Source of the DNA: a virus
Taxonomy: Duplodnaviria; Caudoviricetes
DNA length: 64,000 bases
Virus record (IMG/VR): IMGVR_UViG_3300029305_002795
Coordinates: 460 to 64,459 of that record
Direction: 5' to 3' (one strand)
A program made the translations under genes and the position numbers. Below the pieces are notes generated by a model. It had not been told where the DNA came from and ran no database searches. It was given only the letters and a program-made list of their open reading frames with translations. Each line of letters begins with the position of its first letter. Within the stretch, counting starts at the first letter, position 1. Shown here one piece after another: positions 32,686 to 51,934 of this stretch.

Positions 32686-33387
32686 ATGGCAACTTTTGAT
32701 AAGAAAAATTGTGCTTGTAAAGACCTTTGTTTACAATATAGTACGGATAAATGTAATAGTCTTTGTGAGGGGTATTGGTACGGCAACTATATATTAAGTC
32801 AATCAAATTTACCTGTTAAGTACCAGCAATACAAGGAATTACAAATTCCTGTTGATGACCCTGTTTCTTATAAGTTGCTAAAAGCCTTACAAGACGATAT
32901 TTATAGATTTGTTTACGAGGGCAGAAATTTATACATTTACAGTAATAACAACGGTAACGGAAAAACAACTTGGGCTACAAATTTAATGCACCAGTATTTT
33001 CACGAGGTTAAAGACTGGTGTGGTAGAACAATTAGAGGGGTATTTGTTTCTGTACCGATTTTTCTAATACAATTAAAAAATAGTATTAGTGTTCCAGACC
33101 CAAAGTTTGAACAGTTTAAGGAATCCTTAAGAATAGCGGATTTGGTTATTTGGGACGATATTGCACAAAGTAAACTATCAAATTATGAAATAGGGGTTTT
33201 ATACGCTTATATACAGGAAAGACTGTTAAGTGGCAAAAGTAATATTTATACAGGTACAACCACTAACAACACAATGGAATATAATTTAGGAACAGAATTG
33301 TATGGAAGGGTTAAAACTAACCTTTCCACAGTAGTTTTAAAGGCGGAGGCTTATAAAGTTAATGGTTTCTTTACAAATTCTCAATAA
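32686..33387 (+). CDS. dnaC: DnaC/IstB-like helicase loader ATPase
   Basis: Cys-rich N-terminus; NGNGKTT Walker A; LVIWDDI Walker B. Confidence 0.85.
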   Translation: MATFDKKNCACKDLCLQYSTDKCNSLCEGYWYGNYILSQSNLPVKYQQYKELQIPVDDPVSYKLLKALQDDIYRFVYEGRNLYIYSNNNGNGKTTWATNLMHQYFHEVKDWCGRTIRGVFVSVPIFLIQLKNSISVPDPKFEQFKESLRIADLVIWDDIAQSKLSNYEIGVLYAYIQERLLSGKSNIYTGTTTNNTMEYNLGTELYGRVKTNLSTVVLKAEAYKVNGFFTNSQ

Positions 33388-34654
33388 AATTTTAAATACA
33401 CAAAATGCGTCAATTTTGGATAGGTACGCTTTAACGGTTGAGTATTTTCCAGGGTACGAACAAGAATATAATTTTATACAGAGTCATTTAGACACTTATA
33501 AAAAAGTTCCGGATAAATCTACATTTTTAGATAAATTTCCAGAGTTTGAACTTTTTGATGTTCACGAGGGTGATGAGTATTTAGTAAACACCATCCGTGA
33601 AGAAAACTTGTATTACAAGAGTGTGGACGTTGTTAATACCGTAGCCGAAAAGTTAAAAACTAATGCAGATGACGCAGTTAGTTACCTATTAACACAGGTT
33701 GACACCTTAAAACCGTCACAAGTAATTACAGGGGTTAATATTATCGGGAACGCTAGGGAACGTTATGAAGCCTACAAAAGTAAACAAAATGTAGAAACCC
33801 CTGCCTATATTTCGACAGGTTTTGAAGAACTTGATAATTTACTCGGTGGTTGGGCTAAAGGGGAAGAGTTTGTTGTATTTTTTGCAAGAACTGGTCAAGG
33901 GAAATCCTGGATGTTGGCGAAAACAACGACCGAAGCTTTTTTGAATAATTATCGAGTTGGTTATATAAGTCCCGAAATGAGTGCAACTAAAATTGGTTAT
34001 CGTGTGGATACGATTATAAAAAACTTTTCAAATAAAGCCTTGGTAAGGGGTAAAGAGGTTGATGGGTATGAAGATTATATTAATATGTTAAGCGAGATGA
34101 ACAATCAATTTTTAGTAGCAACCCCAAAAGACTTTCAAAAAAGTATTACCGTTAGCAAGTTACGTTCTTTTTGTATAAATAACCAATTAGACATTTTAGC
34201 GATTGACGGTATTAGTTATTTAAGGGACGAAAGAAAACAACGTGGGGATAACAAAACCACAATGTTGACTAATATTAGTGAAGACCTTATGGCATTAAGT
34301 TGTGAACTACAAATTCCAATTTTAACCGTTGTACAATCAAACCGTGAAGGGGTAAGGGTTAATGGAGAAGCTGGTGTTCCGGAACTCGAAAATATTAGGG
34401 ACTCGGATGGTATCGCATTTAACGCCACAAAAGTAATTTCTATTAAACAGGCGGACGGTTTGTTGCAAATGGCAATTAAAAAACACAGGGACGGTGAAAT
34501 GGGTGGTGAATTAACATATACTTGGAATATTGATACTGGTGAATTCAAATTTACGCAAAATCCGTCAAATACCCCTAGTTACACCGCTCCACAAACGACC
34601 ACACCAACAAACTATATGAAACGACCAACAAAGACCAAAACAGATGTATTTTAG
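33362..34654 (+). CDS. dnaB: Replicative helicase, DnaB family
   Basis: ARTGQGKS, SPEM, AIDGISY, VQSNRE, DSDGI...AT.VI, KHRDGE. Confidence 0.93.
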   Translation: MVSLQILNKILNTQNASILDRYALTVEYFPGYEQEYNFIQSHLDTYKKVPDKSTFLDKFPEFELFDVHEGDEYLVNTIREENLYYKSVDVVNTVAEKLKTNADDAVSYLLTQVDTLKPSQVITGVNIIGNARERYEAYKSKQNVETPAYISTGFEELDNLLGGWAKGEEFVVFFARTGQGKSWMLAKTTTEAFLNNYRVGYISPEMSATKIGYRVDTIIKNFSNKALVRGKEVDGYEDYINMLSEMNNQFLVATPKDFQKSITVSKLRSFCINNQLDILAIDGISYLRDERKQRGDNKTTMLTNISEDLMALSCELQIPILTVVQSNREGVRVNGEAGVPELENIRDSDGIAFNATKVISIKQADGLLQMAIKKHRDGEMGGELTYTWNIDTGEFKFTQNPSNTPSYTAPQTTTPTNYMKRPTKTKTDVF

Positions 34655-34666
34655 AGGTGAGAAAAC

Positions 34667-35653
34667 GTGTTAAAAGTAGGTAATGCGTTAATAACTGTTC
34701 CAATAATTAATATTTTGCAAATATTGAAACAAGAGTTAAATTTGCGAGGTATTAATTTGCTTCACAAAATGGTTCCTGGACCTTCTAATATACAGGTTAC
34801 TTGTCCAGTTCATAACGGTGGACAAGAACGTAAACCAAGTTGCGGGATAAACACTGCAAGAAAACAAGGTGTAGAGTTTGGAACGGTACATTGTTTCACT
34901 TGTGGTTATAGGGCAAGTTTTCCGGAATTTGTAAGTGCTTGTTTTGGTAAACAGGATAACGGCGAATACGGCAAACATTGGCTTGTTAAAAAGTTTATTA
35001 GTTTAACAATTGAGGAACGACCAGACCTAGAGTTAAACCTAACTCGCAAACAGGTACAACGACCACAAATTGAGTATGTTAGTGAGGAAATTTTAGATAG
35101 TTACCGATACACCCATCCGTATTTATACCAAAGGGGTATGACCGACGAAATAATAGAACGTTACGATTTAGGATACGACCCTAATTTTAAATTACCTAAT
35201 ACAAACAACACTATTGAAACAGTTACTTTTCCAGTACGTGATATTAATGGGAATACTTTATTTGTAGCTAGGCGGGCAATTTACCAAAAATTATTCTATT
35301 ACCCTGAAGAAGTTGATAAGCCAATTTACGGTCTTTACGAATTAGACAAAACGGCTAAGGAAATAATAGTTTGTGAATCAATGTTTAACGCTTTAACTTG
35401 TCAAGTGTACGGCAGGCATGCGGTTGCATTACTTGGTTTAGGTACAGAATCACAATACCGACAGTTGGCTCAGTTACCTTGCAGAAAAATAATTATAGGG
35501 TTAGACCCTGACAAGGCAGGTAACAGGGCGGGACAAAAACTCAAACAAAAATTACAACGTAAAAAATTAGTATCATTTTTAGAAATACCGGAAGGAAAAG
35601 ATATTAACGACCTTACACGAGAAGAATTTAATAATCTAGTTGAATATTTTTAA
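34667..35653 (+). CDS. dnaG: DNA primase (CHC2 zinc finger plus TOPRIM)
   Basis: CPVH...HCFTCG; VCESMFNAL; LDPDKAG; KDIND. Confidence 0.92.
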   Translation: MLKVGNALITVPIINILQILKQELNLRGINLLHKMVPGPSNIQVTCPVHNGGQERKPSCGINTARKQGVEFGTVHCFTCGYRASFPEFVSACFGKQDNGEYGKHWLVKKFISLTIEERPDLELNLTRKQVQRPQIEYVSEEILDSYRYTHPYLYQRGMTDEIIERYDLGYDPNFKLPNTNNTIETVTFPVRDINGNTLFVARRAIYQKLFYYPEEVDKPIYGLYELDKTAKEIIVCESMFNALTCQVYGRHAVALLGLGTESQYRQLAQLPCRKIIIGLDPDKAGNRAGQKLKQKLQRKKLVSFLEIPEGKDINDLTREEFNNLVEYF

Positions 35654-35672
35654 ATATTTTTTATATTTTAAC

Positions 35673-35701
35673 TTGTAAAAAATATTTGGTTGTTCTATAA
35701 T
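35673..35701 (+). promoter_or_regulatory. Host sigma70-type promoter TTGTAA-N17-TATAAT
   Basis: Near-consensus hexamers with 17-nt spacer. Confidence 0.75.
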
Positions 35702-35785
35702 TAACTTAACAACAAGAACGGAACAAGTATAAACAAAGGACAAAAAGGGTAAACAGATAATATTAAAAGAAAAGGAGCGATTATT

Positions 35786-36496: not shown

Positions 36497-36517
36497 TAGA
36501 ACCCTTCCCGAGTTCTA

Positions 36518-36548
36518 AGAACCAGTTTCGACCGCTGGTTCTTTTTTT
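36518..36548 (+). terminator. Intrinsic terminator
   Basis: GAACCAG-loop-CTGGTTC followed by T7. Confidence 0.8.
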
Positions 36549-36650
36549 ATGTAAATTAATATGTTGGGGGGTATTGTTTTATTTTTGTTTTTGTAGTTTA
36601 ATATTATAGTAAAATAACAAACTACAAAAAACACCAAGAGGAGTCAAAAG

Positions 36651-37257: not shown

Positions 37258-37305
37258 AATTGTACAGGGTACAAAGTATAACAGACAAAAAAGGAGAAAT
37301 TACAA

Positions 37306-37989
37306 ATGGCACGATTTCAGGCTAAAGATGTAGAAAACTACAAAACCAGTAACGGAGGGTCATTTTTTAGTTTAGCAAATGACAAAGATTATGCCCGAGT
37401 TAGATTAATGTACAACGACATGAACGACGTAGAGTTATTTTCAGTTCACGAAGTGGAAGTGAACGGTCAAACTTACTGGGTAAACTGTTTACGTGAATAC
37501 GACCAACCAGTTGACGACTGCCCATTATGTAAAGCCGGCAACAGATTACAAGTTAAAATGTGGGTTCCATTATATTTAGTAGATACAGATGAAGTTAAAA
37601 TTTGGGAACGTGGTAGAACATTTATTTCTAAATTAGAAAGTGCGAATAGACGTTTTAACCCACTTGTTTCTAACATTTTTGAAATTGAAAGAAACGGTAA
37701 AAAAGGCGACCAAAACACAACTTACGAGTTAATTCAAACTCAACACGACGACGTTTCATTACAAGAGTTGCCGGAACCACCACAAATTGAAGGAACTATT
37801 GTAAAAACTTTATCTTTTGAAGAATTACAAGATTTCGTACAAACTGGTAAACTTGCAGGTGCGACTTCTGCAACTCGCAACCCAGCAACCGACAGACGAC
37901 CAACTTCAAATAATGAAGCTCCTGTTACTAGACGTACAACATCTAGAACAAGAGGTACAAGTGAACAACCTAAAACAGACTTATTTTAA
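37306..37989 (+). CDS. ssb: Single-stranded DNA-binding protein (gp32-like, Zn-binding)
   Basis: FFSLAND, VNC...CPLC, KIWERG, RNGKKGD..TTY; flexible tail ending KTDLF. Confidence 0.8.
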   Translation: MARFQAKDVENYKTSNGGSFFSLANDKDYARVRLMYNDMNDVELFSVHEVEVNGQTYWVNCLREYDQPVDDCPLCKAGNRLQVKMWVPLYLVDTDEVKIWERGRTFISKLESANRRFNPLVSNIFEIERNGKKGDQNTTYELIQTQHDDVSLQELPEPPQIEGTIVKTLSFEELQDFVQTGKLAGATSATRNPATDRRPTSNNEAPVTRRTTSRTRGTSEQPKTDLF

Positions 37990-38001: not shown

Positions 38002-40278
38002 GTGGCATTATTTGATTTAGGTTCTCGTGGTAACAAAAGTAACGACACTAAATTAGCTAAAAAAATAAAGTCTCATACTACAATCCCTGGAGCCGTTCGT
38101 ATTACGGGCGGTTCCTCTTTATTAGAAATGGTCAAGACAAGTGTAGCGTTAGCGCAAAAACATTTAGCTCAATATGCCGATAGTTACGAAGTTATTAGAG
38201 ACGAGGAAGGTTTAAAAGATTATATCGACTGTATTTTAGAAAATAACATATATTCGATAGACACGGAAACAACAAGTTTAGACCCTATTACAACCACAAT
38301 TGCAGGGTTTAGTATGTACACTCCAGGTAGAAAAGCGGTGTATGTACCTTTAAATCACGTTAGTTATATAACAAACGTAAAAAGTAAAGACCAAGTGGAA
38401 ATGAATATCGCTACGGAACAGTTAAACCGTATTAAAGACGTTCCGGCTGTACTTTTTAATGCTAAATTTGACTATCGTGTGATTAAACACACTTTAGGGG
38501 TTAAATTAAACGTTTATTATGACGGTTATTTAGCCGGAAAGTTACTAAACGAGAACGAATTGGACGGCGGTTTAAAAGCGTTACATGCGAAGTATTGTTT
38601 AGACGGTAAACAGGACGCTTTATCGTTCAGTGATTTGTTTAAAGGTATTCCGTTTACACACGTCCCAGTTAGTACAGGATATTTATATGCTGCAAGGGAC
38701 GCAGAAATTACTTGGGAACTTTATGAATTCCAAAAACAATATTTAGACTTAAATGCGGAACGTGAAGACTTACGTCGTGTAGCGGAAGTATTTTGGAATA
38801 TTGAAATGCCTATTGTTCCTATTGTTGCGCAAACAGAGGATAACGGTGTTAAGTTAGACGTAGGGTATTGCGAAGAACTTTCCGAAAAATACCACAAACT
38901 ATTAGACGAAAAATTAGAACGTTTTTATAAAATTTGTGAAATGTATAAAAACGAAATTGACAGTTATAGAATTAGAACTAAAGACAACAAGTTAAGCGAC
39001 CCTATAAACATTGGTAGCCCGACGCAAGTGGCAATTTTGTTATACGACATTATTGGACTTGAAAACAAGGATAAAAGAAAAGCTAGGGGTACAGGCGAAG
39101 AAATTTTATCCGAGTTAAAACACGAAGTTTGCGAGGCTATTTTAGATTATAGGGGGGTTAATAAACTATTAACCACTTATATAGACAAAATGCCTGGAGT
39201 AATTAATAGCAAAACAGGTAAGGTTCATTGCAGTTTTAACCAGTACGGCGCAGTAACAGGACGTTTTTCAAGTTCCGACCCTAATATGCAGAACATACCT
39301 TCTCACAATAACGACATTAGAAAAATGTTTTTAGCCGATGAGGGTTATTATATGTTAGGTTGTGACTATTCTGCGCAAGAACCACGTTTAACAAGTCATA
39401 TGTGCCAAGACGCTAAAATGATTCAAGCGTATAAAGACGGTAAGGATTTATATTGCGAAATTGCGTCTATTGCTTTTGGTGTACCTTATGACGAGTGTAA
39501 AGAGTTCCGACCGGACGGCACTAAAAACCCTAAAGGTAAGGAACGACGTAACCAAGCAAAAGCTATTGTATTAGGTGTTTGTTACGGAAAACAAGTACCT
39601 TCTATTGCACAAGACTTAGGTGTACCAGTTAAAACAGCCCAAGAAATTTACGATAAGGTAATGACAGAATTTCCTGGATTGTTTACCTTTATGATGGACA
39701 GTCAAAATATGGCTCGTGAAGTTGGTTATGTTACTACAAACTGGGGCAGAAAAAGACGTTTGCCGGATATGCAAATACCACAATATGAATTTACGGTGGA
39801 TAGTAGTAAGAGTGTTAATTTCGACCCATTATTTGACGACGAAACAAGCGAAGTTGAATTAACAGAGGAAGAAATTATACAGTACACTAACCAGTTGAAT
39901 TCTTGTCGTGGCTGGAAACAAAAAAATGCTTTAATCGAAAGTATGAAACAAGAGGGCATCAAGGTTAAAGAAAACACCATGAAAATTTTAGAGGCGGAAA
40001 GACAATGTGTAAACGCTAGAATTCAAGGTAGTGCTTCCGATTTAACCAAAAAGGCTATATATTTATTAGGTACTAACGAAGAACTTAATGAATTAGGTTT
40101 TCAACTTTTACTATATGTACACGATGAAATTATTGGACAATGTCCTATGGAAAATGTTGTACGAGTTAAAGAGTTAGTAGAAAAATGTATGGTTGACGCT
40201 GGTAGTGATTTAAGTGTACCGTTGGTATGCGATACGGAAATAAGCAAAGGGTGGTATCATGAGCCAATCGAAGTTTAA
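38002..40278 (+). CDS. polA: DNA polymerase family A (3'-5' exonuclease plus polymerase)
   Basis: DTETTSLD, FNAKFD, YAARDA; TGRFSSSDPNMQNIP; DYSAQEPR; R..AKAIVLG..YG; YVHDE. Confidence 0.97.
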   Translation: MALFDLGSRGNKSNDTKLAKKIKSHTTIPGAVRITGGSSLLEMVKTSVALAQKHLAQYADSYEVIRDEEGLKDYIDCILENNIYSIDTETTSLDPITTTIAGFSMYTPGRKAVYVPLNHVSYITNVKSKDQVEMNIATEQLNRIKDVPAVLFNAKFDYRVIKHTLGVKLNVYYDGYLAGKLLNENELDGGLKALHAKYCLDGKQDALSFSDLFKGIPFTHVPVSTGYLYAARDAEITWELYEFQKQYLDLNAEREDLRRVAEVFWNIEMPIVPIVAQTEDNGVKLDVGYCEELSEKYHKLLDEKLERFYKICEMYKNEIDSYRIRTKDNKLSDPINIGSPTQVAILLYDIIGLENKDKRKARGTGEEILSELKHEVCEAILDYRGVNKLLTTYIDKMPGVINSKTGKVHCSFNQYGAVTGRFSSSDPNMQNIPSHNNDIRKMFLADEGYYMLGCDYSAQEPRLTSHMCQDAKMIQAYKDGKDLYCEIASIAFGVPYDECKEFRPDGTKNPKGKERRNQAKAIVLGVCYGKQVPSIAQDLGVPVKTAQEIYDKVMTEFPGLFTFMMDSQNMAREVGYVTTNWGRKRRLPDMQIPQYEFTVDSSKSVNFDPLFDDETSEVELTEEEIIQYTNQLNSCRGWKQKNALIESMKQEGIKVKENTMKILEAERQCVNARIQGSASDLTKKAIYLLGTNEELNELGFQLLLYVHDEIIGQCPMENVVRVKELVEKCMVDAGSDLSVPLVCDTEISKGWYHEPIEV

Positions 40279-41197
40279 TTTTTATTATGCAGGTATTCAA
40301 CATAAATCGGCTGACGATTTAATTGTTAGCTTAAATGGTAACTTGTTAAGAAGTTACTACAACGATAAAACAGCCATTGGCAAGTTAATAGAATTAAAAA
40401 AAGAGGGCAAGTGGAAAGGCAAACTATTGGTTGATAGTGGTGCCTTTACCTCTTGGACTAAAGGTGTAAAAATTTGTCCGGACGATTATATTAATTGGAT
40501 AAATGAAAATAGCGAGTATGTAGATTATTTTATACAACTCGATACAATTCCAGGAAGTCCCGATGAACCACCAACACTAGAACAAGCTAAACAAGCTACC
40601 GAAGAATCCTGGAATAACTATTTGTATATGTTAGAAAAGGTTAATTGTCCTTTCAAAATACTTCCTGTATTCCACAAAAGGGAACCTATTTCGTTTTTAA
40701 AACAAATTGTTGAACATAAAATCGACGGCAAACCAGTTGATTATATTTGTTTTGGTGGGTTGGCTCGTATTAGAAATTTAGCAGAGTCGGAACGTTGGTA
40801 TCGTGATTGTTTCGACGCTATACAACACAGTAGCAACCCAAATGTAAAAATCCATAATTTAGGGTGTGCCGATACGGATATTTTGGAAAAATACCCATTT
40901 TATAGCAGTGACGCTACAAGTTGGCTATTTAAAAGTAGTGTAGGCGCAATTATGACCGATTACGGAACAATTTTTGTAAGTAATAACGTAAGTAAGGAGT
41001 TTAAACATATCGAAAATTTAACTCCCGAAGTTAAACAACATATTTTAGAAGAGTGTGAAGAGTGGGGTTTAGATTTTGAACAACTAAAAGAAACTTATAA
41101 AGCACGCTCGTTGTTCAATGTTCGTTACCTGCAAAGATGGGCGGATAACTACCAATACAAAGGTCAAAAAAGTTTTAAAAGAAAAAGATTATTTTAG
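40259..41197 (+). CDS. dpdA: DpdA-like 7-deazaguanine DNA transglycosylase (TGT fold)
   Basis: LLVDSGAFTSW, FIQLDTIPG, LPVFH, FGG, IHNLG, YPFYSSDATSW; next to que genes. Confidence 0.85.
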   Translation: MSQSKFNFYYAGIQHKSADDLIVSLNGNLLRSYYNDKTAIGKLIELKKEGKWKGKLLVDSGAFTSWTKGVKICPDDYINWINENSEYVDYFIQLDTIPGSPDEPPTLEQAKQATEESWNNYLYMLEKVNCPFKILPVFHKREPISFLKQIVEHKIDGKPVDYICFGGLARIRNLAESERWYRDCFDAIQHSSNPNVKIHNLGCADTDILEKYPFYSSDATSWLFKSSVGAIMTDYGTIFVSNNVSKEFKHIENLTPEVKQHILEECEEWGLDFEQLKETYKARSLFNVRYLQRWADNYQYKGQKSFKRKRLF

Positions 41198-41205: not shown

Positions 41206-42051
41206 ATGGAAAAGAAAATTGTACACAAAATTGAAGAAGGTATGAACCCTCAAGACGTACTTTGTACAACATACCAAATGAGAAATTTTTATCGTCAATT
41301 TGGAACTGGGTTTTTTAGTAATTTAGATGTAATGAACATTATACAACACCATAAAGCTGCAAAGATGTCTAAATCCGGAATGAACGTTTTAGACGTTTGT
41401 TGTGGTCGTTCAATGATGTTACCGTTGTTGCGCTATTATAGTAAAAATATTAACAGTTACACAGGGGTAGATATTAGTGAAACTAATATTAAAGAAGCAA
41501 AACGTGGTTGTGCAATTAGAAGCAAAGAGTTAGAAGAGGACGAGGTTGGAAATTACTACCCATTCAAAACTGACTGGGTTTTAAGTAACGTGGCTGAAAT
41601 GTCTAAACATTTAGAAGCCGGAACAATGGACTTTATCGTGTACACAAGTGCTATTGAGCATATGCATAAAGACGTTGGTTATCAGTCACTAAAAGAGTGT
41701 AAAACATTATTAGCAAAAGACGGTTTAATGTTTTTATCTTGTCCAAACACTCCTGGAAATGGTTATGAAACACAATATGCGGCACACGTTTATGAATGGG
41801 GTTACGACGAATTAAAAGAAGCGTTAGACGAATTAGGTTTTGAAATCGTGCAAGAAGTTGGTTTAGTGTTACAAGCAAAAGACGTTGAACCATTAATAGC
41901 AGAACAACCTGCCGAAGTTCAAGAATTTATCGGTAAATTAAAAGACTATTTACCAAGCGAATGGCTAACATCAATTTTAGCAATTCCTTTCCCAAAAACA
42001 GCAAAAGAAGTTTTATTTGTGGTTAAGAAAAAAGTTAATAAATTATTTTAA
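41206..42051 (+). CDS. Class I SAM-dependent methyltransferase, small-molecule (UbiG/Methyltransf_11-like) type
   Basis: VLDVCCG, YTGVDIS, DFIVYTSAIEHM, LAKDGLMFLSCPN; no DPPY/NPPY/PC DNA-MTase motif. Confidence 0.9.
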   Translation: MEKKIVHKIEEGMNPQDVLCTTYQMRNFYRQFGTGFFSNLDVMNIIQHHKAAKMSKSGMNVLDVCCGRSMMLPLLRYYSKNINSYTGVDISETNIKEAKRGCAIRSKELEEDEVGNYYPFKTDWVLSNVAEMSKHLEAGTMDFIVYTSAIEHMHKDVGYQSLKECKTLLAKDGLMFLSCPNTPGNGYETQYAAHVYEWGYDELKEALDELGFEIVQEVGLVLQAKDVEPLIAEQPAEVQEFIGKLKDYLPSEWLTSILAIPFPKTAKEVLFVVKKKVNKLF

Positions 42052-42054: not shown

Positions 42055-42084
42055 TTTATAAAACCATTAAAAATAATATATGTT
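42055..42084 (+). promoter_or_regulatory. Phage-type promoter TTTATA-N18-TATGTT for queD-queE-folE-dnaN operon
   Basis: Repeated motif. Confidence 0.7.
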
Positions 42085-42103
42085 AATTAAGGGGGAAACC
42101 AAA

Positions 42104-42454
42104 ATGTATAAAGTAAGTAAACGAATGGAAATAGCAGGTTCACACCAACTTAACCTTAGCTATGAAAGTAAATGTGAAAACCTGCACGGACATAACTGGA
42201 TTGTAACTGTTTATGTACAAGCCGAAACACTAGACCAAGACGGAATGGTGATTGATTTTACACACCTAAAAAAATGTATTCATGGTAAATTAGACCACGC
42301 ACATTTGAACGACGTTGTGGACTGTAACCCTACTGCTGAAAATTTAGCTTTATGGATTGCACAGGAAGTTAATTTAATTCGTCCGGGGGCTAGTTGTTAC
42401 AAGGTAACAGTTCAAGAGTCCGAGGGTAACGTGGCAATTTGGGAGATGGATTAA
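42104..42454 (+). CDS. queD: 6-carboxytetrahydropterin synthase
   Basis: CENLHGHNW, IDF, LDH..LN, PTAENLA, ESEG. Confidence 0.95.
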   Translation: MYKVSKRMEIAGSHQLNLSYESKCENLHGHNWIVTVYVQAETLDQDGMVIDFTHLKKCIHGKLDHAHLNDVVDCNPTAENLALWIAQEVNLIRPGASCYKVTVQESEGNVAIWEMD

Positions 42455-42627
42455 TGGTAATTTTACACAAATCCACGTTTGATATAAAATTGAGTTCCAC
42501 TAAAGCACACCACATAAATGACGCCGAGTGGCAGGAATTAGTACAAGTTTTAGAACAATATTGTGCTAAATATAACTATGTTATAAGTAACTTAGATTTA
42601 ATTATGGAGAAGTATAATGAAAATTAA
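42454..42627 (+). CDS. 57-aa hypothetical protein inside que cluster
   Basis: TAATG coupling to queD; overlaps queE start. Confidence 0.6.
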   Translation: MVILHKSTFDIKLSSTKAHHINDAEWQELVQVLEQYCAKYNYVISNLDLIMEKYNEN

Positions 42628-43282
42628 TGAAATATTTAAGTCGATAAGTGGGGAAGCTGCAAAAGCAGGTTTTCCTGTAATTTTTATTAGAACTTACGGC
42701 TGTAATTTACGTTGCAGTTATTGTGATACAATGTATGCCGTAGAGGGTGGGGAATATAAAGAAATGACCCCTAAAGAAATTTTAGAAACTTGTGAAAACA
42801 TGAACTTAAAACGTGTAGTTTTTACAGGTGGGGAACCATTAATCCAGCCAGATGCTGCCGAGTTAGTGGATTTACTTTGTAACAATGGTTACGAAGTAGA
42901 AATTGAAACAAATGGTGCGGTCAGTTTACCAAAGTTTCACCAAACGTTAAGAACAAAAAATAAATACAAACTTTCATACACAATGGATTATAAAGGTCAT
43001 TCAAGTTTAATGACTAAAAAAATGATAGAAGAAAATTTAGAATTTTTATTAGATAAGGACGTTCTTAAATTTGTAGTAGGTTGCAGTGAAGACTTAATGC
43101 AGGTTTACGAAACATTAAAACATTACGACATTAGAGCCCAAGTGTTTATTAGTCCTGTATTTGGAAAAATCGAGCCTAAAGAAATTGTGGACTTTATTTT
43201 AACCAATAGTTTTTTAACGGATTGTAGAGTACAATTACAACTTCACAAATTAATTTGGGACGTAAATCAAAGAGGTGTATAG
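42617..43282 (+). CDS. queE: 7-carboxy-7-deazaguanine synthase (radical SAM)
   Basis: EIFKSISGE, FIRTYGCNLRCSYCDT, TGGEPL, ETNG, QLQLHK. Confidence 0.95.
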   Translation: MKINEIFKSISGEAAKAGFPVIFIRTYGCNLRCSYCDTMYAVEGGEYKEMTPKEILETCENMNLKRVVFTGGEPLIQPDAAELVDLLCNNGYEVEIETNGAVSLPKFHQTLRTKNKYKLSYTMDYKGHSSLMTKKMIEENLEFLLDKDVLKFVVGCSEDLMQVYETLKHYDIRAQVFISPVFGKIEPKEIVDFILTNSFLTDCRVQLQLHKLIWDVNQRGV

Positions 43283-43284
43283 TA

Positions 43285-43908
43285 ATGGCAGTAGATAAAA
43301 ATAAATTTATGTATGAAGAATATGACGGAACAAAAAAGTTTCGTGATTTTAGTGTTAAATACCATTGTAATGAGTTATTAAAAGCATTAGGGGCTGACCT
43401 AGAAAGTCCTGGAATGTGTGAAACTCCGGAACGAATGGCTAAATATTTAATGGAAGTATTTGAAGGACAATTATACACAAACGAAGAAATTGCCAAAAAA
43501 TTCGATAAACAATTTGAAATCGGTAGTGATGACTTAGTTATTGTAAAAGACATTACAGTATTTAGTCATTGTGAACATCATATGGCTTTAATGTATGATG
43601 GCAAAATCGCAATCGCATATTTACCACAAGACGGCAAAGTGTTAGGACTATCGAAGTTTGCAAGAATTGCGGAGTTAGTTTGTAAAAGATTCCAAGTTCA
43701 AGAACGAATTGTACGAGATATTGCGGAAGTGTTGACGCTATTAGGCATGAAAGACTTTATGGTCGTTATGTACGATACTAAGCACGCTTGCATGACTACA
43801 CGTGGGGTCAAAAACTATACTTCTAAAACCGACGCATTATTAACAAAAGGTTTATTTAGAGAAAAAGACCAATTAGAAGATAGAGTATTAAGGTCATTAG
43901 GACTATAA
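43285..43908 (+). CDS. folE: GTP cyclohydrolase I
   Basis: ETPERMAK, FSHCEHHM, GLSKFARI, QVQER, HACMTTRG. Confidence 0.95.
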   Translation: MAVDKNKFMYEEYDGTKKFRDFSVKYHCNELLKALGADLESPGMCETPERMAKYLMEVFEGQLYTNEEIAKKFDKQFEIGSDDLVIVKDITVFSHCEHHMALMYDGKIAIAYLPQDGKVLGLSKFARIAELVCKRFQVQERIVRDIAEVLTLLGMKDFMVVMYDTKHACMTTRGVKNYTSKTDALLTKGLFREKDQLEDRVLRSLGL

Positions 43909-43923: not shown

Positions 43924-45009
43924 ATGTTAAAAGTAAAAACAAAAACACTACAAGAAATGACACAAAAGGCAATGAAAGGTGCTAGTAACAATAAAATTTT
44001 GCCTTTAACAAGTATGTTAGCAATTGAATTAAAAACTAACGTATTAACTTTAACAACAACCGACTTTTCTAATTATTTAGAAATTAAACAAGACAAAGTA
44101 GAAGGTGAAGATTTTTATGTCGTTGTACAGGCTGATATTTTTAGTAAACTTATTGGAAAGCTTTCAACAGAAGAAGTAACATTAACAGTTGAAGGAAATG
44201 TATTAACAGTAAAAGCAAACGGAACTTATAAACTAGAATTACCAGTTGATGAAGATGGTTCTTTAGTACAATTTCCTGAATATAAGAAAAATTTAGATGC
44301 GACTACTACATTTATTAAACTAGCAACTTTAAAATCTATTTTAACAACAAACAAAGCGTCAGTTGCGCAGGATATGGTTGTACCTGCTTTAACAGGTTAT
44401 TATATTGACGCAAACGGTGTTTTAACAAGTGATAGTTTTGTAGCTTGTCATAATAAAGTAACGGGATTAAATGATTCATTTATGTTACCTTGTCAAGTTG
44501 TTGAACTGTTTAACGTTTTAGACCAAGAAGACGTAAGTGTTACAGTTGGTGAAACAGACGTTGTGTTTGACACAAATGGCGCAACAATTTACGGTAAACT
44601 ATTAATGGAAAAAGATAATTTCCCAGTAGAAGCTATTAACAACTATTTGAAAACTTCTTTCGATAGTAAATGTAAATTGCCAAAAGACGCATTATTAAGT
44701 GTTTTAGACCGTATGATTTTATTTGTTGGCAATTACGATAAAAATGAAGTGTATTTAACATTTACAACAGACGGCATTACATTTGAAAGTAGAAAAGGTA
44801 CTGGTAAGGAACTTGTTAAATACGGTGAAAGTGAAAACTTTAAACCATTTACTTGCTGTATCGACATTGAAATTTTAAAAGCACAAATACAAGCACAACA
44901 AACAGAAGTAATTGACTTGTATTACGGCAACCCTGGCGCTATTAAATTAGCTTCTGGCGCTATTGTACAAATTGTTTCTTTAAGCGAAGATGACAGGGTA
45001 GGTGCATAA
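43924..45009 (+). CDS. dnaN: Sliding clamp, DNA polymerase III beta-like
   Basis: 361 aa; N..ILP, LTLTTTD, LTGYY, TSD, GKL...FP, L.VLDRM three-domain pattern. Confidence 0.9.
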   Translation: MLKVKTKTLQEMTQKAMKGASNNKILPLTSMLAIELKTNVLTLTTTDFSNYLEIKQDKVEGEDFYVVVQADIFSKLIGKLSTEEVTLTVEGNVLTVKANGTYKLELPVDEDGSLVQFPEYKKNLDATTTFIKLATLKSILTTNKASVAQDMVVPALTGYYIDANGVLTSDSFVACHNKVTGLNDSFMLPCQVVELFNVLDQEDVSVTVGETDVVFDTNGATIYGKLLMEKDNFPVEAINNYLKTSFDSKCKLPKDALLSVLDRMILFVGNYDKNEVYLTFTTDGITFESRKGTGKELVKYGESENFKPFTCCIDIEILKAQIQAQQTEVIDLYYGNPGAIKLASGAIVQIVSLSEDDRVGA

Positions 45010-46830: not shown

Positions 46831-47976
46831 ATGAGTAAACTGGATGAATTATTTACCGAAATAAATAAGACCTATAAGGAACAAGTCGCAACAGTTGGTA
46901 AAGTACGACCAAAATTATCCGTTATACCATTATCTAGCTTAACTGCTTGTTATAGTTTATACGGTGGTATTCCAAGGGGACGAGTTATTGAATTTTTTGG
47001 GGAAGAAAATGGTGGTAAAACAACAACTGCTTTAGACATTGTAGCTAACGCACAAAAGTGTTTTCAACAAGAGTATGAACACGAAATTCAAAGTTTAGAA
47101 AGTCAACCTAAATTAAATAAGACCGACGAACAGAGATTGCAATATTTGCAAAACAGGGGCAGGGGTCAAGCTATTATTTGGATTGACTGTGAAAATACTT
47201 TTGACGAGGACTGGGCTAGAACATTAGGGGTAAACGTTGAAACCCTTTATTTTATGCAACCATTATCACAAAGTGCGGAACAGATTTTCGACAATATTGA
47301 AAGTATGGTTAATACTGGGGAAGTTGGTTTAGTTGTTTTAGATAGTCTTGGTGCAATGTTATCGCAACAAGAGTGGGAAAAAAGTATGGAAGAAAAAACA
47401 TACTGCGGAATAGCCGGACCGCTTACAAGGTTTAGTAAAAAGATAGAATACGCTTGTGCTAGATACGGTTGTACGTTTATTGGCATAAACCAAATGCGTG
47501 AGGACATTTCTAATAGTTATAGTGTGTATAAAACTCCGGGCGGAAAAACTTGGAAGCACGTTTGTTCATTACGTTTAATGTTTAGTAAAGGATGTTATTA
47601 CAGTGAACAATACAAAGACTTAACAAGAAGTGCAGACGGTGCGGCTGGCAATTACGTTAATTTACGAATTGAAAAAACTAAAGTATGTAAACCGGATAGA
47701 AAGAATGGTAGTTATACCCTAAATTATTCTTTAGGTGTGGATAAGTATATGGATTTAGTAGAAGTGGCGTTAAAATACGGCTTAATTGTACAGACTGGGG
47801 CTTGGTACACTATAATGCAGGATATAGAAAATGGTGAACCGTTGTCCGACGCTGAAGGCAATTTACTTAAATTTAATGGTAAATCTAAACTTATTGAGTT
47901 TTTAAGGGAAGAATGGGAACTTTATAATTGTTTAGAACAAATATTATTGGAGCAAATTAGTGGCACTATTCAATAA
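46831..47976 (+). CDS. recA: RecA/UvsX-like recombinase
   Basis: GGIPRGRVIEFFGEENGGKTT, WIDCENTFD, VVLDSLGAM, INQMRE, TPGGK. Confidence 0.95.
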   Translation: MSKLDELFTEINKTYKEQVATVGKVRPKLSVIPLSSLTACYSLYGGIPRGRVIEFFGEENGGKTTTALDIVANAQKCFQQEYEHEIQSLESQPKLNKTDEQRLQYLQNRGRGQAIIWIDCENTFDEDWARTLGVNVETLYFMQPLSQSAEQIFDNIESMVNTGEVGLVVLDSLGAMLSQQEWEKSMEEKTYCGIAGPLTRFSKKIEYACARYGCTFIGINQMREDISNSYSVYKTPGGKTWKHVCSLRLMFSKGCYYSEQYKDLTRSADGAAGNYVNLRIEKTKVCKPDRKNGSYTLNYSLGVDKYMDLVEVALKYGLIVQTGAWYTIMQDIENGEPLSDAEGNLLKFNGKSKLIEFLREEWELYNCLEQILLEQISGTIQ

Positions 47977-48304
47977 AAATGAAATAAACATTAGTCCTAA
48001 AATTCTGGAACTAATAAATAGACGTAGACGTCAAATATTAGTTCATTCGTACCTTTACTATAAATGGGATACTAACTTAATTAGCGATTTTACTTTTGAC
48101 AGTTGGTGCAAGGAATTGTTTAAACTCCAAAAACAGTACCCAAGAGAAACAGAAAAAGCAGTATTTCCGGAAGCCTTTAAGAATTGGACTGGTTTTAGTG
48201 GGTACGATTTATTTTCTCACGATAACATGACGGAAGCTTGGGCTAGGTTTAAAGCGCTACAACTCGATACATTTTATAAAAACAATAAAAATAATATATG
48301 TTAG
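47960..48304 (+). CDS. Stand-alone protein resembling domain Ia of NAD-dependent DNA ligase
   Basis: HSYLYY..D..ISD..FD....EL..LQ..YP matches the LigA Ia pattern; no adenylation domain. Confidence 0.7.
   Translation: MALFNKNEINISPKILELINRRRRQILVHSYLYYKWDTNLISDFTFDSWCKELFKLQKQYPRETEKAVFPEAFKNWTGFSGYDLFSHDNMTEAWARFKALQLDTFYKNNKNNIC
48273..48302 (+). promoter_or_regulatory. Phage-type promoter TTTATA-N18-TATGTT for resolvase/clamp-loader operon
   Basis: Repeated motif. Confidence 0.7.
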
Positions 48305-48322
48305 TTGTAAGGGGGTTATTAC

Positions 48323-48646: not shown

Positions 48647-48984
48647 ACGTTGAAAGAGAACTACTTAAATACTTATTATTAGAAAAAATTCAGGAATCGG
48701 ATTTTAAACGTGTGGAAATAACACGATACGAAGATAACGCAGTTGGCGTTAAATTAGAGGGTCAACCTTTTGGTGTTATTGGGGGACTAATTGCAGCGGT
48801 TAGGGCAGTAGCCGAAAGCGGTCATATGACAACCGACGCCGTAATAGAAATGATTCAATTGGGTGTAGATTTCACAGAGCAACGAGAAACAACAAAACTC
48901 GTAGGGGACGATGAAACGCCCGAAATATTTAAAATGTTTGAAAACTACATTAAAAACGATTTAACTGAAGAAGGAGAGGAATAA
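48643..48984 (+). CDS. Hypothetical protein
   Basis: Coupled ORF with GGAG RBS. Confidence 0.7.
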   Translation: MNVERELLKYLLLEKIQESDFKRVEITRYEDNAVGVKLEGQPFGVIGGLIAAVRAVAESGHMTTDAVIEMIQLGVDFTEQRETTKLVGDDETPEIFKMFENYIKNDLTEEGEE

Positions 48985-50000
48985 TGTCTCGTAAAACATT
49001 AGCAATTAAATATAGACCTAAAACGTTTAACGACGTAACTGAACAAAGTTCTGTTATAGCAATTTTACAAAACCAATTAGAAACTAAAACACACAAAAAT
49101 TGCTATTTGTTTACAGGGAGTGCAGGTACAGGAAAAACAACTTCCGCACGTATTTTTGCAAACGAGTTAAACGGCGGAAAAGGTACACCAATTGAAATTG
49201 ATGCTGCTTCCAACAATGGGGTTGACCAAGTTAGAACAATTATCGACCAAGCTAAATTGAAAGCTTTGGATAGCGACTATAAAGTATTTATCATAGACGA
49301 GGTACACGCCGTAAGTAATGCAGGTTTCCAAGCTATGTTAAAACTAATTGAGGAACCACCTGCACACGCAATATTTATTATGTGTACAACCGACCCACAA
49401 AAATTGCCGGCTACAATTTTATCTAGGGTTCAACGTTACGATTTCAAAAAAATTAGTTTGGACGGTGTAGTTAAAAGACTAACCTATATTTTAGAACAAG
49501 AAATAAAAGAAGGAAGACAAATACAATACACCGACGAAGCAGTTGAATATATTGCAAAGGTTGCCGACGGTGGTATGCGTGACGCAATTACGTTAATGGA
49601 TAAGTGTTTATCGTTTAACGAATTGTTAAACACAAAAAACGTACTTGAAGCGTTAGGGGCAGTAGATTATGGCACAATGTGCGATTTATTGTCCGCTATC
49701 GGTACAGAGAATATAAAAGGTTGTATAGAAATTGTGGAAAAAGTTTACAATAGTGGACTTGATTTAACACAGTTTATGAAGCAATTTTGGTTATTTGTTT
49801 TGGACGTTAATAAATATGCCTTGTTTAAAGATTTCAAATATACACAATTGCCTTCTACTTTAGAATCTAGACTGAACGAATTAACGGAATATGCAGTAGG
49901 CAATTTATTAACCGATTTATTAGAATTAAACAATAACCTAAAACGTGAAACAAACGTTAAACAGTATGTAGAAGCTACTTTGTTTGATTGGGTGGACTAA
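48984..50000 (+). CDS. dnaX: Clamp loader ATPase, gamma/tau-like
   Basis: LAIKYRP, GSAGTGKTT, EIDAASNNGVD, IIDEVH, LK.IEEPP, TILSR, GGMRDA. Confidence 0.95.
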   Translation: MSRKTLAIKYRPKTFNDVTEQSSVIAILQNQLETKTHKNCYLFTGSAGTGKTTSARIFANELNGGKGTPIEIDAASNNGVDQVRTIIDQAKLKALDSDYKVFIIDEVHAVSNAGFQAMLKLIEEPPAHAIFIMCTTDPQKLPATILSRVQRYDFKKISLDGVVKRLTYILEQEIKEGRQIQYTDEAVEYIAKVADGGMRDAITLMDKCLSFNELLNTKNVLEALGAVDYGTMCDLLSAIGTENIKGCIEIVEKVYNSGLDLTQFMKQFWLFVLDVNKYALFKDFKYTQLPSTLESRLNELTEYAVGNLLTDLLELNNNLKRETNVKQYVEATLFDWVD

Positions 50001-50001
50001 T

Positions 50002-50832
50002 ATGATTGGACAAAAAAGATTATTAGGTATTATAGATAAGTTATCCGAAAAGGATTTTCCAAGGTTTGTCCTCCTGGTGGGTGCAAGGGGTTCAGGTAAA
50101 AAGTTATTAAGTAAAGCTATTGCCGATAAATTGGGCTATCCCCTTGTTCCTATCGGAGTAAGTGTTGAGGAGGTAAGGGAAGTAATAACAAACTCTTACA
50201 CAAACACGGAACCAGTTGTTTATGTTTTAGCCGATACTGATAAAATGAGTATTCAAGCTAAAAATGCTTTACTAAAAGTAACCGAGGAACCACCACAAAA
50301 GGCTTATTTTATTTTAACAGTAACAGACCCAGCAAACACACTAAAAACTTTAATAAGCAGGGCATGCGTTTTGGTTATGGACGAATATAACGAAAATGAA
50401 TTATTTAGTTATTATTGTAGTAAACGTGACCCGGACACCCTTGATTTAGCATTGGGTACGTATATTTCCAAAATAGCTAGTAACCCACAAGAAGTGGATA
50501 TGTTAGCAACTTACGACATAAACGAATTTCAAGAGTTTGTAAGAACTGTTGCGTTTAATTTACACACAGTAAGCTCAGCAAACGCTTTTAAAATCGAACA
50601 TAAACTAGCGCTTAAAAAAGATGAAGATAAATGGGACTTGTTATTATTTTTGCAAGCCCTTAAATACGAGTTAGTTGCGCACTATATGGAAATTGGGGAA
50701 AAGAAATACCTAAAAACTTATTTCCTAGCTTGTGGGTTGGTAAAAGAATTAATGTACAAAAATTCTGTAAATAAACAATATTGTTTAGACCAGTTCATTC
50801 TTGCAGTGCGTAAGGTATGGAGGGAAGAATGA
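50002..50832 (+). CDS. holB: Clamp loader delta-prime-like subunit
   Basis: G.RGSGK, NALLKVTEEPP, TLISR. Confidence 0.8.
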   Translation: MIGQKRLLGIIDKLSEKDFPRFVLLVGARGSGKKLLSKAIADKLGYPLVPIGVSVEEVREVITNSYTNTEPVVYVLADTDKMSIQAKNALLKVTEEPPQKAYFILTVTDPANTLKTLISRACVLVMDEYNENELFSYYCSKRDPDTLDLALGTYISKIASNPQEVDMLATYDINEFQEFVRTVAFNLHTVSSANAFKIEHKLALKKDEDKWDLLLFLQALKYELVAHYMEIGEKKYLKTYFLACGLVKELMYKNSVNKQYCLDQFILAVRKVWREE

Positions 50833-51761
50833 ACCTAGCCGAACTAAAAAAATCTATTGTGGATAAAAATTTGGATAATGTGTATATTTTTACAGGCGAC
50901 GAAATTAAAATTATGAACATTTATACACACCAAATTGCAAAGGTACAAAATAGAACATTAACAAGAAAAGACACCGTTGCCGAAATATTTAAAACTTTAA
51001 AAATTGCAAAACTAACAAAAGAATCTAACGTGTATGTTATTTTAGACGACTTTGCATTTTTAAAGGAAGAAAAGTATTGGGAACAGTTAATGACTGCAAC
51101 AAAAGACCATACAATTATTTTAATTTATAGTCATTTGGATAAACGTGGCAAGTTTTACAAAACATATAAAGATAAAATATGCGAATTTGAAAAGTTAAAC
51201 GAAGTAATGCTTGCGAAGTACGTCCAAAAAGAAATAGACCTAACCACAGATTCCGCAAAACAATTAAGTTTGATGTGCGATAATTCCTACAACCGTATTT
51301 TATTAGAAGTGGACAAATTAAAAAACTTATCGCAAGTTTATAATATTAAACATGAAGAAGCTTTTGGTAAAATGTTAAAAGAAGGATTAATATATACACA
51401 GGAAACGGAAATAGTTTTTAAGTTAGTTGACGCAATTTGTAAAAGGGACGTGGAAACTACTTTTAAACTATTGAAGGACTTGGATGTAACTAAGGAGTCG
51501 CCAATAGCAATTTTAAGTTTACTATACACTAATATCAAATCAATTTTACTTGTTAGTGTTTGTCCCCCAGGAGCTAAAGTAAGTGAAACTACTGGGTTGA
51601 CAGGGTGGCAAATTAAAATGGTTTACGAAAAAGGTTATCACTATGAACCTAGTGAACTATTAGACATTATGGGACAAATTAAATACACAGACGAGGCTAT
51701 TAAAATAGGTAAAATAGAACCTCAAAACGCAATACCTTTTTTAGTAGCTAATGTAATGTAG
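50829..51761 (+). CDS. holA: Clamp loader delta-like subunit
   Basis: VYIFTGDE, LDKRGKFYK, RILLEVDKL, VFKLVDAI, E.IKIG. Confidence 0.8.
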   Translation: MNLAELKKSIVDKNLDNVYIFTGDEIKIMNIYTHQIAKVQNRTLTRKDTVAEIFKTLKIAKLTKESNVYVILDDFAFLKEEKYWEQLMTATKDHTIILIYSHLDKRGKFYKTYKDKICEFEKLNEVMLAKYVQKEIDLTTDSAKQLSLMCDNSYNRILLEVDKLKNLSQVYNIKHEEAFGKMLKEGLIYTQETEIVFKLVDAICKRDVETTFKLLKDLDVTKESPIAILSLLYTNIKSILLVSVCPPGAKVSETTGLTGWQIKMVYEKGYHYEPSELLDIMGQIKYTDEAIKIGKIEPQNAIPFLVANVM

Positions 51762-51769
51762 GAGTAATT

Positions 51770-51934
51770 ATGCAGGACGAAACAAAAAGAGTTTTTTGTC
51801 GTAGATGTGGACGAGAACTAAAAAGTAAAGCAGGTAAAGAATTAGGATTTGGACCAAGTTGTTATAAAAAGTACATTAAGGAACTAAACGTTTCCACAAG
51901 GAAAAAATTATTTACTATCGACAAGGAGACATAG
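51770..51934 (+). CDS. 54-aa zinc-binding protein (DUF6011-like)
   Basis: CRRCGRELK...GFGPSC; AGGAG RBS; contains RKKLF; translated by hand. Confidence 0.75.
   Translation: MQDETKRVFCRRCGRELKSKAGKELGFGPSCYKKYIKELNVSTRKKLFTIDKET

Follow-up and report, generated by a model that had tools for sequence, protein, structure and literature searches.

Do the DNA-modification enzymes of a phage carry a peptide that docks them on the replication machinery? This question is raised by a 64,000-nucleotide stretch of viral DNA (Caudoviricetes; IMG/VR record IMGVR_UViG_3300029305_002795, positions 460 to 64,459), hereafter the window, in which a DpdA-type DNA 7-deazaguanine transglycosylase and an S-adenosylmethionine (SAM) methyltransferase (MTase) both end in Leu-Phe (LF). 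An earlier note, made from the sequence alone, had combined these two tails with the Phe-ending tails of the single-stranded DNA-binding protein (SSB) and the helicase DnaB, and with the Met-Ala-Leu-Phe (MALF) starts of a DNA polymerase and a ligase-related protein, into one code for binding the sliding clamp of the phage, DnaN. Every terminus that it quoted is present in the sequence (DnaB TKTDVF, SSB PKTDLF, DpdA KRKRLF, MTase KVNKLF and the two MALF starts), and its gene identities are correct, including those of DnaN, a full-length beta-clamp homolog, and DpdA, which matches phrog_887. The phage record is complete (64,459 bp, ~33% G+C), its plus strand holds all genes, and the replication module spans 31-52 kb of the window. 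The proteins at issue are the following:

33362-34654, plus strand: DnaB-type helicase (DnaB_C, E=3e-24), C-terminus TKTDVF

37306-37989, plus strand: T4 gp32-like zinc SSB (phrog_14578), disordered C-terminal region, end PKTDLF

38002-40278, plus strand: family A DNA polymerase (PolA) with 3'-5' exonuclease (DNA_pol_A, E=2e-90), M-A-L-F at 38002-38013

40259-41197, plus strand: DpdA-type DNA 7-deazaguanine transglycosylase (phrog_887, E=9e-48), tail KRKRLF at 41177-41194

41206-42051, plus strand: class-I SAM MTase (Methyltransf_23, E=9e-15), tail KVNKLF at 42031-42048

43924-45009, plus strand: DnaN beta sliding clamp (PF00712) with an acidic C-terminus, the proposed receptor for LF

47960-48304, plus strand: stand-alone ligase Ia-domain protein (Nlig-Ia; PF22745, E=1.4e-27), M-A-L-F at 47960-47971

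A basic Leu-Phe terminus is conserved on DNA-acting enzymes

Chance alone would give 0.31 LF ends among the 104 open reading frames (ORFs) of the window, and three are observed (P=0.004). For the wider class [LVIM]F the expectation is 0.90 and the count is four (P=0.013); these four ORFs fall inside a run of 8 consecutive genes (P ~8e-4 given four hits). At the other chain end, LF occupies residues 3-4 in three window ORFs, with 0.31 expected. PolA and Nlig-Ia both begin their MALF with GTG as start codon, preceded in each case by a good Shine-Dalgarno site (GAGGTG-N5-GTG and GGAG-N7-GTG, respectively). An ORF at 54491-55090 starts M-W-L-F by the longest-ORF rule, and this start was probably mis-called.

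For comparison, 80 related viral loci were fetched, all of them ordered SSB-PolA-DpdA-(cassette)-DnaN-Cas4-RecA (termed window-type), and 1834 ORFs from these loci and the window region were clustered in an unbiased scan. LF ends were observed in 117 of the 1834 ORFs, where ~5.5 would be expected by chance, and at least 106 of the 117 are DNA-modification enzymes or members of a single family encoded directly upstream of dnaN; DpdA accounts for 80 and the MTase for 10. In one cluster of N6/N4 DNA methylases (PF01555), six of seven members end in LF, and further LF tails are found on ArcS-like (DUF5591), DpdM-like (CxxCxxCC/YkgJ) and PAPS-reductase/DndC-like proteins, on DUF6884 proteins encoded beside DpdA, and on an HNH endonuclease. 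The family upstream of dnaN (~171 aa, without a Pfam match) has a basic-LF end in four of four members (L046:4263-4775, L050:13515-14042, L052 and L064).

The ending persists over considerable evolutionary distance. Among DpdA orthologs in the loci, 71 of 79 end in LF, and of 32 database homologs, with identities as low as 38%, 28 do so; for the MTase, the counts are nine of nine loci and 93 of 120 database homologs (K..KLF), and forms that lack the tail stop at ..EILFIVRK. The resulting consensus is [KR][KR]x-L-F-COOH, in which L and F are invariant across 72 unique DpdA, 61 MTase and 20 other tails, while the basic residues vary (for example, KKGGLF).

The enzymes that make the free base share the neighborhood of DpdA and the MTase:

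42080-42454, plus strand: QueD (Pfam), end WEMD, no LF tail

between QueD and QueE, plus strand: 62-aa ORF

42617-43282, plus strand: QueE (Pfam), end QRGV, no LF tail

43255-43908, plus strand: FolE (Pfam), end SLGL, no LF tail

As the earlier note had observed in the window, these soluble precursor enzymes end differently: LF ends occur in 0% of FolE, QueD and QueE orthologs (41-49 of each) and at most once in QueC, in one QueC-sized ORF (L059:10905-11762).

The window-type DpdAs without the tail are fusions of DpdA with QueF or QueC, and a relic, RKRSL[IF], is kept at the junction. Across the DpdA-QueF fusions (L035:4953-6524, L047, L060, L063, L075 and L076) and the DpdA-QueC fusion (L045:5287-7098), the former tail is found internally as RKRSL[IF] or KNKSLF. 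In the QueF-fusion phages, PolA begins M[GS]LL[NS]IK, not MxLF. In an AlphaFold2 (AF2) model of DpdA with a predicted local distance difference test score (pLDDT) of 91.7, the last helix closes at residue 296, and residues 297-312 form a coil beyond the fold in which pLDDT drops from 71 to 45. The tail thus appears exposed and flexible, as would be expected of a docking appendage.

A comparable signal is found at the N-termini. LF lies within residues 2-7 in 22 of 44 unique PolA ortholog N-termini, against a background of 27/1319, and 43 of the 44 have a hydrophobic pair near the N-terminus followed by a basic linker; in the window PolA, M-A-L-F precedes a basic linker of ~55 residues, and the exonuclease domain begins at residue 62. 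Nlig-Ia starts with M[AS]LF or MLF in seven of ten orthologs. Clostridium phage FA88 has MALF on PolA, MNLF on Nlig-Ia, KKSLFSL on a DNA methyltransferase and an acidic DnaN end, and no DpdA homolog was found within the 19-kb stretch around its replication module. As FA88 keeps LF carriers in a replication module without a nearby DpdA, the LF code appears to be independent of DpdA. These comparisons bear out the part of the earlier note that grouped the DpdA and MTase tails with the MALF starts: they form one conserved protein-level motif that is limited to DNA-acting enzymes, and the basic-LF peptide is very probably a functional docking label for such enzymes.

The motif is selected at the protein level

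A different origin for the tails would be chance or the nucleotide sequence itself, with the tail codons serving as the Shine-Dalgarno site of the next gene followed by an AT-rich spacer. The letters permit such a reading, as AAAGGAGG encodes K-G-G, AGGAGG encodes R-R and TTATTTTAA encodes L-F-stop, and some tails do embed a Shine-Dalgarno site, namely the ArcS-like tail of locus L001 (AAAAGGAGG-TTATTT-TAATG) and the tails of Queuovirinae-type loci (CAGGAG-CTCTTC-TAATG). The codons themselves argue otherwise: the LF pair is written with ten codon pairs in window-type DpdAs and eight in the Queuovirinae type, and the tail codons use all six Leu and both Phe codons. In addition, at least 21 of 54 unique DpdA 3' ends and seven of ten MTase 3' ends have no ORF within 40 nucleotides downstream and keep the basic-LF tail all the same, and in the window the gap of 28 nucleotides between the MTase and queD means that no Shine-Dalgarno site lies inside the MTase tail. 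Conversely, the equally tight-packed genes queD, queE, folE, dnaN and cas4 never end in LF. Synonymous codon use, tails without an adjacent downstream ORF and packed genes without LF together indicate that LF is selected at the protein level, and chance is at odds with the window statistics (3/104 LF ends against 0.31 expected), so that we regard this origin as having next to no probability. The Shine-Dalgarno/spacer artefact can be dismissed for L-F and remains a confounder for the Q-E pair of the Queuovirinae type and for some R-R pairs.

SSB and DnaB carry tails of a different kind

The earlier note had also counted the SSB and DnaB tails into the same code as those of DpdA and the MTase, and this part did not hold. 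In SSB, a terminal F is found in 52 of 75 orthologs and the residue before it varies (E, V, R, A, N, Q or K, in ends such as DDEF, QEVF, SRF and TDAF), while 12 orthologs end RRAGM. Among 44 DnaB orthologs, the last residue is F in 33 and Y in 10 (EDVF, SEVF, EEEY, SPF). LF itself occurs once in each of the two ortholog families, and the tail context is acidic. Given the variable penultimate residue across SSB orthologs, the terminal LF of the window SSB is best taken as incidental.

Two other replication proteins have similar ends. The Toprim primase (34667-35653, plus strand; Toprim_2, E=9e-14) ends NLVEYF in the window and has an aromatic end in 59% of its orthologs, placing it in the acidic-aromatic class, more weakly. 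A putative replication initiator of the HTH_36 family (31295-32239) has an aromatic end in 94% of its orthologs (..DVEF, ..GVYF, ..DDEVF), and the window copy ends ..PKYKN.

Acidic aromatic tails are known from E. coli SSB, whose C-terminus (SSB-Ct) reads DDDIPF, and from T7 gp2.5 and gp4, which have a terminal Phe. The window SSB and DnaB, as well as the primase and initiator, share the acidic stretch, the terminal aromatic residue and the disordered tail of these proteins, whereas the basic-LF tails of DpdA and the MTase are not fitted by the acidic-tail model. Judged by sequence, the tails of SSB and DnaB are most readily assigned to the gp32/T7/SSB-Ct type of acidic-aromatic tail, and those of SSB, DnaB, primase and initiator would constitute a system separate from basic-LF. 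The SSB has the OB fold of gp32 and its His/Cys3 zinc site: the ligands H48, C61, C72 and C75 are invariant, and all of the top five Foldseek matches come from the gp32 proteins of T4 and RB69 (prob 1.00, E ~1e-5). T7 gp2.5 was considered as a model for the SSB and rejected, as the fold and zinc site are gp32-like.

Could all Phe-ending tails, including SSB PKTDLF and DnaB TKTDVF, nevertheless be one clamp-binding code? In the window, SSB ends LF and DnaB ends VF, each after K-T-D, and the SSB and DnaB tails co-vary across lineages, as members of one code might. Against this stand the variable penultimate residues, the single occurrence of LF per family and the VF, EY or PF ends of DnaB, together with an acidic context that is the opposite of that of the DpdA and MTase tails. 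The SSB, moreover, resembles gp32 and has a disordered C-terminal region; in T4, gp32 uses its C-terminal domain to contact other replisome proteins (PDB 8gme, gp32-Dda). Queuovirinae-type loci hold a superfamily 2 (SF2) helicase ending DDDIPF alongside a separate ELF tail on DpdA. We consider a single code improbable. The description of the code as a mostly basic variant is apt for DpdA and the MTase and fails for SSB and DnaB, where two different codes had been merged.

The SF2 (ResIII/DEAD) helicase-like protein of the Queuovirinae-type loci (L099:527-2410 and 21 orthologs) matches the E. coli SSB tail exactly in its DDDIPF end. It may imitate the SSB of the host and in this way gain access to partners that bind SSB. 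A dCMP-deaminase-family protein of ~161 aa (L001:12264-12764 and 25 orthologs) always ends in Tyr (..KEMY, ..GKMY, ..KVIY).

The phage clamp is the best candidate receptor

If the basic-LF peptide is a docking label, which protein receives it? DnaN matches PF00712 with 39.4 bits (cut-off, 24.4), and its profile positions 1-352 align to residues 4-373 of PDB 4tr6 (E=1.6e-24), so that the homology covers all three domains of a beta clamp. It has a cognate clamp loader, encoded downstream, with other genes and Nlig-Ia in between:

between DnaN and Nlig-Ia: Cas4-like nuclease, RecU-like protein and RecA/UvsX-like recombinase

48984-50000, plus strand: clamp loader, DnaX-like subunit (Pfam and PHROG matches)

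49984-50832, plus strand: clamp loader, delta'-like subunit (Pfam and PHROG matches)

50817-51761, plus strand: clamp loader, delta-like subunit (Pfam and PHROG matches)

In window-type loci, the DpdA cassette sits between PolA and DnaN, and charge is complementary: over the last 10 residues the mean net charge is -3.0 for DnaN (68 orthologs) and +3.0 for DpdA tails. The delta-like subunit has a basic-L-phi element ahead of its VYVxxDD strand, roughly where E. coli delta inserts its ..SLF.. element; the two may be equivalent, and we give the point little weight. In what are presumably the canonical pocket residues of DnaN, as placed by the HMM alignment, the T-D of ..TD(G/S)HRL.. is kept and HRL is not; this mapping was too uncertain to be used.

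The association extends to a second, deeply divergent lineage. Distant DpdAs (~25-29% identity) from Queuovirinae, Rhizobium phages, BcepGomr and a Synechococcus phage are LF-type-tailed too (IQELF, VMELF, QPGLF, EQRLF, QQGLFV, PVLF), and their genes adjoin, or lie no more than two genes from, a 'processivity factor' gene, with a gene for a polymerase next in most cases; the adjacency of DpdA and clamp is also seen in RHEph04, VpKK5, JenP1, PaMx25, CAjan, BcepGomr and Ssp-JY38. In Queuovirinae-type loci, 35 of 37 DpdAs end ..ELF, and in most the clamp gene starts 0-1 nucleotides past the stop codon; the processivity factor there is a divergent beta-clamp homolog (hhalign 92%, E=5e-7; PDB E=6e-5). 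Polymerases encoded beside distant DpdAs start ..GLFW.. or ..GFFW...

Loss of the tail is likewise patterned. ParB-linked DpdAs (Mufasa8, Knocker, L134-L136) have no tail, and the MTases without a tail sit in ParB-DpdA-MTase cassettes whose DpdA is tail-less as well. ParB may be an alternative way to bring DpdA to DNA. Such ParB_N-DpdA-MTase cassettes, with both enzymes tail-less, occur in unrelated phage backbones (L137 and L138:8679-11301; L139:8486-12388) and are followed by QueT, or by QueD, QueE and FolE.

From comparative evidence, namely the list of carriers, the synteny in two deeply divergent lineages, the co-variation, the charge complementarity and the independence from DpdA, DnaN emerges as the best candidate receptor, and we hold docking of the LF label on the phage DnaN to be slightly more probable than not. 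The interpretation offered in the earlier note is partly supported, being upheld for a conserved basic-LF motif on DNA-acting enzymes and set aside for the membership of SSB and DnaB. In mechanistic terms, a short terminal docking peptide, consisting of an invariant Leu-Phe preceded by positive charge on a flexible extension, would mark proteins that work on newly made duplex DNA. These would be PolA, Nlig-Ia, DpdA and the SAM MTase in the window and, in relatives, also PF01555 DNA methylases and ArcS-, DpdM-, PAPS-reductase-like and DUF6884 proteins; for N-terminal M-x-L-F, the free amino group could provide the positive charge. The receptor would be the peptide pocket of the DnaN clamp, loaded by the three-subunit clamp loader of the phage, with the acidic C-terminus of DnaN complementing the basic tail residues. 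DpdA and the MTase would then travel with the clamp behind the fork, modifying new DNA with the free base that FolE, QueD and QueE provide, and modification, we infer, would be coupled to replication.

How well does the peptide fit known clamp motifs? Canonical clamp-binding peptides sit in a hydrophobic cleft that lies between domains II and III of the clamp. Subsite I of bacterial clamps takes up the LF of Q-phi-x-L-F, whose most important positions are 1, 4 and 5 (bioRxiv 10.64898/2026.05.27.728225). This motif (QL[SD]LF) or the hexapeptide Q-phi-x-L-x-L is found on Pol II, III and IV, Pol I, MutS, Hda and delta (10.64898/2026.05.27.728225; PMC9690074; PMC5397184). The peptides described here share with it the short, flexible form, the L-F anchor, the C- and N-terminal placements (N-terminal in Hda), carriers that are polymerases or DNA-processing enzymes, and a proposed receptor of genuine DnaN homology, served by a DnaX/delta/delta' loader of the phage itself. 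L-F stands at positions 4-5, and the segment is exposed and flexible (the DpdA coil and the ~55-residue linker of PolA). They differ in that positions 1 and 2 have Lys or Arg in place of Gln and an aliphatic residue, in that the motif lies at the extreme chain end in nearly all carriers, and in that the carriers include DNA hypermodification enzymes.

Several observations weigh against DnaN as the receptor. The first concerns the motif itself. The canonical Gln is missing: of 153 unique tails, 16 have Q at -5 and 88 have K/R there, and window position 1 is K in DpdA and V in the MTase. Position -4, where the canonical motif has an aliphatic residue, is K, R or N in most tails, and such a basic context is unusual for bacterial clamp motifs. 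The Queuovirinae tail has a Q, at -4, in the form [VI]QELF. Its Q-E is written CAGGAG, exactly at the expected Shine-Dalgarno position of the clamp gene, and this coincidence confounds the likeness to the Gln-containing canonical motif. A complex prediction of DnaN with DpdA residues 279-312 gave ipSAE values of 0.04 and 0.00, in one job with a 34-residue peptide and without controls, and we count it neither for nor against the clamp.

The second concerns co-occurrence. The tail is kept widely in dnaN-bearing loci, the comparison that the earlier note had called for, yet there are exceptions in both directions. Cellulophaga phage phi38:2 has DnaN near its deazaguanine cluster and a tail-less DpdA, and L137 has DnaN with DpdA and MTase both tail-less. 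The Nanhaivirus phages R5C (L091) and Pan1 (L096) have 430-aa DpdAs that end, near-canonically, QVSLF and QQYLFGGL, and no phage clamp gene was found in their genomes, so that their tails would need the host clamp or another partner. A strict rule by which a tail is present if and only if there is a phage clamp is rejected on these four cases. Furthermore, every window-type locus also has PolA, SSB, Cas4 and RecA, and co-occurrence is therefore unable to single out DnaN; the general clustering of replication genes weakens the synteny argument in the same way.

The third comes from the literature. Mycobacteriophage Rosebush reaches ~28% modification, or 96,530 dPreQ0 per 10^6 nucleotides (PMC6884629), and the DpdA of Knocker, the only mycobacteriophage DpdA that was read, has no LF tail.

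Much of this would be accommodated if basic-LF docked on something other than the phage DnaN, namely the host beta clamp, the gp32-like SSB core, the helicase or the clamp loader. SSB, PolA, Cas4 and RecA accompany DpdA in all window-type loci as faithfully as DnaN does, the near-canonical tails of R5C and Pan1 fit a host clamp, and phi38:2 and L137 pair a DnaN with a tail-less DpdA. PolA itself carries the motif, however, and the carriers as a group (polymerase, ligase-related protein, methylases and a base-exchanging glycosylase) are the classic clamp tool-belt. DpdA adjoins the clamp gene, often overlapping it as TAATG, in an independent lineage; the acidic DnaN C-terminus suits basic tails; and SSB and helicase own acidic tails and so look like carriers of the second code. 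A receptor other than DnaN would, on this comparison, be rather unlikely.

The tail might also be a non-specific DNA-binding or autoregulatory appendage, with its basic residues on the DNA backbone and LF acting as a wedge or packed on the enzyme. Every C-terminal carrier is DNA-acting, and K/R-rich tails generally raise DNA affinity. This account sits poorly with an invariant terminal L-F among variable basic residues and G-G spacers (KKGGLF), which are typical of a pocket anchor, with the AF2 model, which leaves the DpdA tail unpacked on the fold, and with the Queuovirinae tail [VI]QELF, which is not basic. It also offers no rationale for N-terminal M-x-L-F on PolA and Nlig-Ia, and we judge it highly improbable.

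A possibly clamp-linked methyltransferase in the deazaguanine pathway

The DpdA of the window shows tRNA-guanine transglycosylase (TGT)-fold homology to the DpdAs of Dp-1, 9g, CAjan and others, adjoins queD, queE and folE, and is 37% identical to Dp-1 gp7. In its main text, the phage-host interactome paper on Dp-1 lists no interaction of gp7 or of gp10, the DnaN of that phage (PMC4840434). Among named phages, Bacillus phage Flasso and Streptococcus phages Dp-1 and MS1 are the nearest; the polymerase has its nearest named counterpart in Clostridium phage FA88. Phage DpdA systems of types DpdA1-4 have been described, and the DNA of Streptococcus phage Dp-1 carries dPreQ1 (PMC6884629, PMC10516641). 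Like these systems, the window combines DpdA with FolE, QueD and QueE; Dp-1 gp7 ends RQRRLF, and Dp-1 shares the DnaN and clamp-loader module. Unlike them, the window phage has no QueC and has a class-I SAM MTase, not a DpdM of the DUF3109/YkgJ type.

QueC (PF06508) is absent from the complete phage genome, and in nine of ten MTase-carrying loci the MTase holds the slot that QueC occupies in relatives, those nine being without QueC. With FolE, QueD and QueE alone and no QueC, the pathway is expected to end at 7-carboxy-7-deazaguanine (CDG). DpdM was considered as the identity of the MTase and rejected: the window protein is a class-I Rossmann SAM MTase, and DpdM is a DUF3109/YkgJ Cys-cluster metalloprotein (PMC10516641). 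A sequence search of the PDB with the MTase returned no match. The MTase and DpdA gain or lose the tail together, and PF01555 DNA methylases carry the same tail; both give indirect support to the earlier proposal that DNA, and not the free base, is the substrate of the MTase. This pattern of sequence features suggests that the LF-tailed MTase methylates a base derived from CDG once it is in DNA; the product would be a modification not described before.

The 7-deazaguanine papers place DpdA action after replication. They do not settle by what means an entire genome is modified so efficiently, or which of the subsequent steps (reduction, amidation, methylation) take place on DNA and not on the free base; they mention neither tail nor clamp, and the word 'clamp' appears 0 times (PMC6884629, PMC10516641). 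Our literature search found no paper tying DpdA or phage methylases to a clamp. If DnaN is the receptor, the shared clamp label would supply a mechanism, with modification traveling with the clamp on nascent DNA, as well as a sequence-based rule for sorting pathway steps into DNA-level and free-base ones. A basic variant without Gln would join the clamp-binding motifs, and bacterial-type clamps would gain a new class of client. If the receptor is not the clamp, the motif would still be an unrecognized interaction hub in a large phage group.

A more general proposal can be put forward tentatively, and we consider it possible but somewhat doubtful: that a terminal positive charge plus Leu-Phe is a general label of the replisome of this Firmicute phage, loading DpdA, SAM and N6/N4 methylases and ArcS-, DpdM- and DndC-like enzymes onto the phage clamp. 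Such a label would sort DNA-level from free-base steps by sequence, and for this phage it would predict that the QueC-replacing MTase acts on DNA-borne CDG, making an undescribed base. Dp-1, CAjan and 9g are culturable phages.

Two other clamp systems offer parallels. The clients of the T4/RB69 clamp gp45 include the polymerase gp43 and the proteins gp33 and gp55, which have C-terminal hydrophobic tails. There, as proposed here, a phage clamp is a platform for non-polymerase proteins that bind through L/F-rich extreme C-termini; gp45 differs in being a PCNA-like trimer rather than a bacterial-type beta homolog, its tails are acidic-hydrophobic, and its non-polymerase clients are transcription factors. 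DNMT1 and UNG2 bind PCNA through PCNA-interacting protein (PIP) boxes, which likewise couples a DNA methyltransferase and a base-excising or base-exchanging enzyme to a clamp, so that nascent DNA is processed at once. The clamp family, the motif (QxxLxxFF) and the domain of life are all different, and the likeness is an analogy only.

The replisome of the window is itself a mosaic: its zinc SSB is of the gp32 type, its polymerase belongs to family A, and its beta clamp and clamp loader are bacterial-type. Directly after the loader genes lies one further protein with an LF element:

51770-51934, plus strand: DUF6011 small zinc protein (PF19474, E=4e-10), TRKKLF at 51896-51913, six residues before the C-terminus

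Its sole ortholog in the loci, a single sequence, reads HKKLFKKT, and by this resemblance the DUF6011 protein is a possible minor carrier of the LF motif.

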